Part shown: positions 20,366 to 20,502 of the stretch, piece by piece
Layout: the number at the start of each line of letters is the position of its first letter
Numbering within the stretch: the stretch's first letter is position 1
DNA from: Candidatus Thorarchaeota archaeon
Lineage (GTDB): Archaea > Asgardarchaeota > Heimdallarchaeia > Hodarchaeales > Hodarchaeaceae
Length of the DNA stretch: 32,000 nt
Assembly: GCA_048882505.1 (NCBI GenBank)
Contig: JBHLRO010000016.1
Location: 30,001 to 62,000, forward strand
Direction: 5' to 3'
The notes under the pieces: model-generated
The model's input: only the letters and a program-made list of their open reading frames with translations
What the model was told of the DNA's origin: nothing
Databases searched by the model: none
Program-made: the position numbers and the translations under genes

Positions 20366-20502
20366 TAGCCCCGCCCAGATTCGAACTGGGGTCACGAGGA
20401 ATCTTCCTAGAATCGCAGGTTACGACTCTAGACCAAAACCTCGCATGATATGGGCTCACGAGGATTAAATTCCTCGATAATGGACCACTACACTACGGGG
20501 CT
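20366..20502 (-). tRNA. trnQ: tRNA-Gln(TTG) with two 32-nt introns: D-loop 20450-20481 and canonical 37/38 20401-20432
   Basis: A1-U72 acceptor AGCCCCG/CGGGGCT+A typical of archaeal tRNA-Gln; anticodon arm CGAGG-TT TTG GT-CCTCG; T arm CCCAG-TTCGAAT-CTGGG. The anticodon intron has a full BHB (TTTT/GAAG helix, 9-bp stem CTAGAGTCG/CGATTCTAG). Confidence 0.93.

Follow-up and report, generated by a model that had tools for sequence, protein, structure and literature searches.

A D-loop intron in a tRNA-Gln gene of a Hodarchaeaceae archaeon resembles a tandem copy of the adjacent exon sequence

The window, i.e. the whole stretch of 32,000 nucleotides that was analysed, carries a tRNA-Gln(UUG) gene on its minus strand, between trm112 and a ribophorin I homologue and approximately 2.6 kb from SecY, an arrangement that holds across the genus. 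The gene was annotated with two 32-nt inserts, one predicted intron in the D-loop and one canonical intron at 37/38, as follows:

20366..20502, minus strand: tRNA-Gln(UUG) gene, encoding a pre-tRNA of 137 nt (from the spliced product and orthologues in conserved context)
20482..20502, minus strand: exon 1, with the acceptor 5' strand, the D-stem 5' strand and the D-loop up to position 20b (from alignment with intron-less orthologues)
20450..20481, minus strand: predicted D-loop intron of 32 nt between positions 20b and 21 (from similarity to the exon, absence from orthologues and a relaxed BHB)
20433..20449, minus strand: exon 2, positions 21-37, with the D-stem 3' strand, the anticodon stem 5' strand and the anticodon UUG
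20401..20432, minus strand: canonical 37/38 intron of 32 nt with a perfect hBHBh' motif (from ARAGORN and helix scoring)
20366..20400, minus strand: exon 3, positions 38-73, including the second half of the source segment (38-53)
20356..20362, minus strand: run of 7 T, starting 4 nt past the discriminator base (read from the sequence)

The boundary of the D-loop intron is ambiguous by up to 2 nt owing to an AU repeat, CCA is not encoded in the gene, and the run of 7 T on its 3' side is a likely transcription stop. The DNA is AT-rich at 11-19 nt upstream of the 5' end; this stretch was not called as a TATA box, its spacing being atypical. In the raw window, the gene was missed both by ARAGORN and by the Rfam tRNA model. 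With the D-loop insert taken out, ARAGORN called a tRNA-Gln(ttg) with a 32-nt intron at 37/38, and with both inserts (20450-20481 and 20401-20432) taken out, it returned a normal 73-nt tRNA-Gln(ttg) cloverleaf; the spliced product agrees with the intron-less orthologues. A BLAST search with the gene identified it as the sole UUG isoacceptor found in the genome, which is estimated to be 94.5% complete, so that it is the only tRNA found there that is able to read CAA. The only other Gln-like match of the whole-genome search was a CUG isoacceptor on contig C11.

Further features of the window were recorded alongside. A Ribophorin I-domain protein of 700 aa lies next to SecY (20750-22852, minus strand, and 23075-24580, plus strand, respectively), and the two are neighbours throughout the genus; ribophorin I is a component of the eukaryotic-type oligosaccharyltransferase. 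At 28002-28095 (plus strand), ARAGORN reported a tRNA-SeC(tca), which in the Rfam alignment is an ordinary tRNA with anticodon CAU (Met or Ile2); its anticodon loop contains an insert of 21 nt, an intron that accounts for the mistaken SeC call. The trnW gene (2765-2962) is accompanied by a partial copy at 3061-3140 (minus strand), which reproduces exon 1 (19/19) and the greater part of exon 2 unchanged and has a shorter anticodon region. This copy has a 32-nt D-loop intron at the same site, with a largely different sequence.

The D-loop intron was aligned with the 32 nt of spliced tRNA sequence that come next (Sprinzl positions 21-53). The recount yielded 21/32 ungapped identities, exactly as in the original prediction, and 25/33 identical columns with one gap admitted in each sequence, where about 24 identities had been claimed, so that the match itself stood and the gapped count was corrected. 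The segment TCCTCGTGA is identical in the intron copy and the exon source, as are all ten positions of the CGAGG/CCTCG stem and the TGA that follows it. Changes affect four of the eight loop columns and none of the ten stem positions, in agreement with the earlier description of a kept stem with an altered loop. The alignment likewise upheld the claim that the intron corresponds to the spliced sequence, that is, to the sequence without the 37/38 intron.

Chance tests were run in the fixed tandem register, and the shuffling that had been proposed as a check of significance favoured the match: it was reached by 1 of 200,000 mononucleotide shuffles, 0 of 20,000 dinucleotide shuffles and 0 of 100,000 hairpin-preserving shuffles, with a binomial tail of 1.1e-6 and a z-score of 6.5. 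In an any-register local alignment to the whole mature tRNA, 2 of 20,000 shuffles attained the observed value. As a control, the three tRNA-Trp introns of the window gave z-scores from -1.7 to 1.6 in either tandem register. The intron is similar to the adjacent exon sequence in a head-to-tail arrangement, with a period equal to the intron length of 32 in the spliced sequence (p < 1e-5).

The age of the intron was addressed by comparison within the genus set of 22 genomes, in which the conserved neighbours identify the compared tRNA-Gln(UUG) genes as positional orthologues. With G000 denoting this genome and G016 its closest relative, the introns of the gene at this locus were distributed as follows:

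G000 and G016: D-loop and 37/38 introns
G021, G011 and G014: 37/38 intron only
G002, G006, G007, G012 and G015: T-loop intron only, of approximately 30 nt
G005 and G009: no introns
Six further genomes: no tRNA-Gln gene at the SecY locus

One positional orthologue hence occurs in four intron configurations within a single genus. The orthologue in G019 (contig C153, minus strand of the locus, around 2941) shows mismatches in the acceptor stem and gives the impression of a degenerate gene, although its 37/38 intron is retained and is related to the one in G021 (p 0.0008). At a site other than the SecY locus, G013, G001 and G021 possess a tandem pair of a second kind of tRNA-Gln, with UUG and CUG anticodons, A37 and discriminator G73. 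The UUG gene of this pair in G021 contains a D-loop intron of 32-33 nt, whose stem repeats CGTAG of the preceding exon at a level that is not significant (p 0.1).

A pattern search of the 22 genomes with up to 3 mismatches located the D-loop intron in G000 and G016 only, and it is missing from 12 orthologues with the same flanking genes, including that of G021. In the SecY tree, G021 is sister to G000 plus G016 (SH-aLRT 95), and the stem branch leading to the latter two measures 0.24 changes per site, compared with 0.03-0.06 for the tips. Since G021 is sister to the carriers and does not have the intron, the latter arose on the G000 plus G016 stem. The comparison of orthologues that the original prediction had called for was in this way carried out within the genus, and the SecY tree supplied the date; the distribution identifies the predicted intron as a recent lineage-specific gain and not an ancestral feature. 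Regarding SecY itself, G007, G009, G011, G012, G014 and G017 have a second SecY of 73-80% identity, and these copies could be paralogues or reflect strain mixtures in the MAGs, whose contamination is estimated at 5-8%. A distant SecY-like match of 40% identity additionally exists in both G000 and G016, with one TAG within that of G000.

At the tRNA locus, G000 and G016 share approximately 92-96% DNA identity, with differences of about 8% over a 1.2-kb stretch. The 32-nt D-loop insert is identical in both, and the 37/38 intron carries four of the five differences within the gene (at 4 of its 32 positions), two of which fall on inner-helix base pairs and keep the pairing. Copy and source disagree in 8 of 33 columns, and a rough clock would place its decay at a few times the split between G000 and G016, which is consistent with the stem branch. 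The D-loop intron structure was also encountered in the second MAG and in contigs from the runs of two further studies, so that an artefact of assembly is excluded. Among the contigs of four DNA runs were the gene structure described here, a G016-like variant and cross-mapping from other tRNA-Gln genes.

Splicing was evaluated from the predicted structure around the cut sites. The strict BHB motif (hBHBh') consists of two 3-nt bulges separated by a 4-bp helix at the splice sites, and relaxed forms are designated HBh' and hBH. The 37/38 intron of the gene conforms to the strict motif, with complete central (4/4), inner (5/5) and outer (4/4) helices, and the cut rule was taken from it, namely after the second base of each 3-nt bulge. 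For the D-loop intron, the only register giving both a correct tRNA and the BHB spacing has cuts after pre-tRNA positions 21 and 53. In this register, the central helix has 3/4 pairs, formed by the D-loop GGU with the GCC of the copy's tail, and the inner helix has 4/5 pairs and is stacked on a hairpin of 6 bp supplied by the copied anticodon stem. A clean CCA makes up the 5' bulge, and the 3' bulge lies within an internal loop beside the D-stem. The motif is a relaxed BHB and not a strict one, and the loose filter employed also passes about 1% of site pairs (68), so the relaxed form alone would count as modest evidence for splicing. The earlier proposal that the anticodon stem was recycled as the intron hairpin finds its counterpart in this predicted 6-bp hairpin beside the relaxed BHB.

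A perfect duplicate, modelled with the same sites, has 5/5 inner and 2/4 central pairs. Its inner helix forms because positions 22-26 happen to complement positions 42-46, and a C-to-G change in the copy's tail adds the third central pair; in this model, the duplicate may have been cuttable from the start. The single exon change of G016 (T-to-C at position 16) falls on the one unpaired central position. The minimum-free-energy fold from RNAfold pairs GUGG with CCAU and departs from the BHB drawing, and the same T-to-C change breaks the RNAfold pairing and not the BHB model. The genome encodes two tRNA_int_endo (EndA-type) ORFs, with open frames of 183 and 218 aa, on contig C18 (41332-41586 and 72299-72559), and one RtcB; we infer that the two EndA-type proteins form an (alpha-beta)2 enzyme. 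Two-subunit and epsilon2 endonucleases are, according to PMC5829648, the types reported to cut non-canonical introns. We consider it very probable that the D-loop insert is spliced.

Structure, register and distribution can be accommodated in a single course of events, in which the locus is a working tRNA-Gln(UUG) gene with two interruptions. Positions 21-53, which comprise the D-stem 3' strand, the anticodon arm, the variable loop and the T-stem 5' strand, would have been duplicated head to tail in the DNA of the common ancestor of G000 and G016. The upstream copy would fold on itself, its anticodon stem being lengthened by pairing of positions 22-24 with 44-46, and the CC of the copied T-stem strand would pair with the conserved GG of the D-loop. 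This folding would set the CCA bulge and a second, loose bulge four base-pair positions apart, i.e. as a relaxed BHB, at which the two-subunit endonuclease would cut and RtcB would rejoin the exons into exactly the original tRNA. Subsequently, the upstream copy would have decayed, its loop losing the anticodon-loop sequence and one change adding a central-helix pair, with the stem being kept. The similarity, its register, its confinement to one lineage and the geometry of the motif are observations; beyond these, we infer that the insert is spliced, that the copying took place at the DNA level and that the events occurred in this order. That the intron was copied from the gene's own positions 21-53, by whichever route, is in our judgement probable, and that it originated through an in-place tandem duplication of these positions in DNA is the reading we favour, with somewhat less assurance. 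The original prediction had envisaged birth by internal duplication or by insertion of a copy of mature tRNA; an origin of this type is supported by the tandem register, the lineage-specific gain and the failure to find a donor in the searches detailed below.

The repeat is strictly head to tail with nothing between the units, and the copy starts exactly where the source starts. A tandem duplication gives this register automatically, whereas an insertion would need a coincidence. Partial duplication of a tRNA segment is seen elsewhere in the genome, namely in the partial 5' copy that lies about 100 nt upstream of trnW. No clear microhomology was detected at the duplication ends. With two near-identical carriers only, the alignment provides no covariation and no younger intermediate. 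The source is today split by the 37/38 intron, which is absent from the copy, and G021 also has an intron at 37/38. By parsimony, the intron at this position would predate the duplication, and a duplication of DNA should have copied it; a plain DNA duplication hence needs either that the 37/38 intron be younger or that it was lost from the copy. Clear homology between the 37/38 intron of G000 and those of its relatives is not apparent (p 0.02-0.44), the intron content of the locus turns over fast, and it is possible that the 37/38 intron is younger than the duplication.

The absence of the 37/38 intron from the copy is what favours an alternative in which a copy of positions 21-53 was inserted from outside, be it from spliced tRNA (cDNA), from an intron-less allele or paralogue, or from an att-site fragment with later deletion of the element body. 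Under this alternative, the match to the spliced sequence would be expected even though the nearest relative has an intron at 37/38, and integration at tRNA genes, which leaves direct repeats, has been suggested as a way in which introns are gained (PMC3293823). The exact tandem register would, however, be coincidental, the genes on both sides of the locus keep their order throughout the genus, and neither an integrase nor a remnant of an element was found nearby. Moreover, no RVT_1 reverse transcriptase was found in the genome, and none of the genomes and collections searched contained a donor sequence. Within the genome, short-word BLAST returned no second copy, only the intron itself, its exon source and chance-level short matches. 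In a genome collection with one representative per GTDB species, a search for tRNA-Gln genes combining this anticodon arm with any D-loop insert of 20-50 nt retrieved the sister MAG only. In a metagenome collection, the corresponding pattern search for a 20-50-nt D-loop insert in tRNA-Gln found nothing, and the exact 22-nt core of the intron was absent from the metagenome contigs. We consider an inserted copy unlikely.

The same searches bear on transposition from another tRNA gene, against which the failure to find a similar intron elsewhere in the genome, the genus or the collections scanned argues. A transposed intron family of the Thermoproteales type was rejected because neither BLAST nor the pattern search of the 22 genomes uncovered closely similar introns in other tRNA genes, and the contrast originally drawn with intron transposition between genes is in keeping with this result. 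The occurrence of the intron in unrelated tRNAs with non-matching exons, which had been named in advance as the observation that would speak against duplication, was looked for and not found in the genomes searched.

Returning to the favoured in-place duplication, the resemblance could instead stem from chance and convergence, with an unrelated insert shaped by what a BHB needs, i.e. a GC-rich hairpin and a CC for the GG of the D-loop. A sequence similar to a hairpin is also complementary to that hairpin, and the CCCA of the tail pairs with the D-loop UGG; the tail match could be partly convergent because the intron helix with the D-loop GG needs CC. The T-loop introns of the relatives can be explained likewise: they were considered as duplicates and dismissed, given that TTCGAA is a palindrome and their similarity to it amounts to complementarity. 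The strictest control addressed this concern directly. With the stem fixed and the leader, loop and tail shuffled in place, only 2 (ungapped) to 28 (gapped) per 100,000 shuffles reached the match, so that the likeness goes beyond a common GC-rich stem. Among approximately 300,000 genomic 32-mers, none reached the gapped score, and none of the 33,249 that bear a hairpin came near the observed match. Furthermore, no comparable intron was found in the genome or the Gln family, and convergence does not predict the tandem register. We judge chance and convergence to be quite improbable as the origin of the match.

A further possibility is that the 32 nt are not an intron at all and represent either an enlarged D-loop kept in the mature tRNA or a part of a decaying pseudogene. 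The relaxed BHB and the failure of standard tRNA finders to detect the gene would fit this reading. Against it, no second tRNA-Gln(UUG) gene was found in a genome estimated as 94.5% complete, the exons are perfectly tRNA-like, many other tRNA genes of the genome are interrupted likewise, and the insert is unchanged in a relative that differs at about 8% of positions across 1.2 kb. The preserved pairing at both changes on inner-helix pairs of the 37/38 intron also speaks against it. We consider this reading very improbable. Alternative splicing with a decoy arm, in which the first copy's 5' half would join the second copy's 3' half into an ochre-suppressor-like Gln body with anticodon UUA upon removal of a 63-nt "intron", is suggested by the ARAGORN output on the full pre-tRNA but hardly deserves credence, since the sites needed for this tRNA(tta) lack a BHB (central helix 2/4, inner helix 0/5) and the loop would borrow two bases from the 37/38 intron. 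The tRNA(tta) call is a by-product of the proposed duplication.

To place the gene among other interrupted tRNA genes, an acceptor/T-arm search of the genome was evaluated, which returned 51 tRNA candidates; 38 exceed 84 nt in length. When each of these 38 was aligned with itself to detect direct repeats, the Gln gene ranked top with a z-score of 4.6, followed by 2.7 for the next candidate. Its D-loop intron likewise stood out most in a set of 29 intron segments from the tRNA-Gln genes of the genus. A scan of introns against their own exons, which had been suggested for all archaeal tRNA introns, was run for this genome and for the tRNA-Gln genes of the genus, and within that scope the Gln D-loop intron was the sole clear case. 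The putative duplication is the single readable one among the 38 long candidates of this genome; older duplicates would by now have changed too much to be recognised.

Several other repeats were inspected and set aside. The triple-intron tRNA-Ser(UGA) gene at C16:7960-8131, with a z-score of 2.7, was not convincing as a second case: its two GATAGCCA copies are the 3' splice-site contexts before two exon AGCCA stretches, and its D-loop intron is old, with a sequence that differs from one genome of the genus to another. The repeats of AGCCAGGT and AGCCTGGTA that occur in tRNA-Leu and tRNA-Ser(GCU) lie inside exons and are due to chance. The 37/38 intron of the tRNA-Gln(UUG) gene, compared with its following exon (20401-20432 versus 20366-20400), gave 12/32 identities with p 0.01 before correction in a series of 10 tests and was taken as chance. 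In the tRNA-Gln(CUG) gene (C11:45435-45534), the 37/38 intron has an exact copy of the 8 nt (GGTTCTGG) that precede its 5' splice site (p 0.017), and this copy provides the 3' strand for both the inner and the central helix of the BHB. Introns of the CUG genes throughout the genus have in common the 3' motif ACGTGGTGAA, which resembles exon positions 5-14.

Asgard archaea have the most interrupted tRNA genes known. A census preprint of their tRNA introns (bioRxiv 10.64898/2026.10.13.758758) reports many recent gains, enrichment at BHB sites, D-arm introns that are missed by tRNAscan-SE and a median insert of 22-23 nt. It also cites curated multi-intron tRNA genes from three complete Asgard genomes (Valentin-Alvarado et al. 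2024). The preprint leaves the arrival route open after testing inter-gene copying, mobile elements and reverse transcription, and neither tandem nor internal duplication turned up in a word search of its text. The present intron is like the D-arm introns of that census in being a short D-arm insert with a BHB-like motif that is missed by finders and was gained on a terminal or near-terminal branch, and its host genome likewise has most of its tRNA genes interrupted. It is unlike them in that a source can be identified, namely the gene's own adjacent exon.

Among the intron-gain models considered in reviews are transposition as in Thermoproteales and element integration. [quoted passage not shown] 2010), and this process resembles the present case in the late gain of a BHB intron at a non-canonical site. 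It predicts near-identical introns in different tRNA genes of a genome, none of which were found here, and the similarity in our case is to the host exon and not to another intron. Integration of elements at tRNA att sites, put forward as a source of introns and tRNA-fragment repeats (Sugahara et al. 2012, PMC3293823), equally produces direct repeats of tRNA segments beside or inside a tRNA gene. In contrast, no element, integrase or gene-order break was observed here, and the repeat has its units directly adjoining.

The same logic applies to spliceosomal introns, for which tandem genomic duplication of an AGGT-containing exon segment is an accepted route of gain (PMC3443670). In both systems, the exon duplicate would supply both splice signals, and removal of one unit restores the product. 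The cases differ in that the gene here encodes a tRNA and not an mRNA, and in that a protein endonuclease reads an RNA fold instead of a spliceosome reading AGGT, such that the duplicated unit must here fold into a bulge-flanked hairpin. What is new is an ordinary-looking Asgard D-loop intron whose putative origin by exon duplication is still readable.

The case offers a dated, lineage-specific gain with its likely source readable from sequence, in which the copied anticodon stem would have become the intron hairpin, and it suggests that tRNA introns spliced by protein enzymes can arise on the spot by small duplication. Eukaryotic tRNA splicing shares its protein-enzyme splicing system with archaea. 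The logic of intron gain by tandem duplication in eukaryotic genes would hereby be carried over to that system. It is a doubtful extension at this stage that small in-place tandem duplications folding into bulge-flanked hairpins are a regular source of non-canonical tRNA introns in Asgard archaea. If this were general, duplicates would be spliceable at once by a broad-specificity endonuclease, most introns would be too decayed to show their origin, and the question of how such introns arrive, left open by the census preprint, would have an answer.
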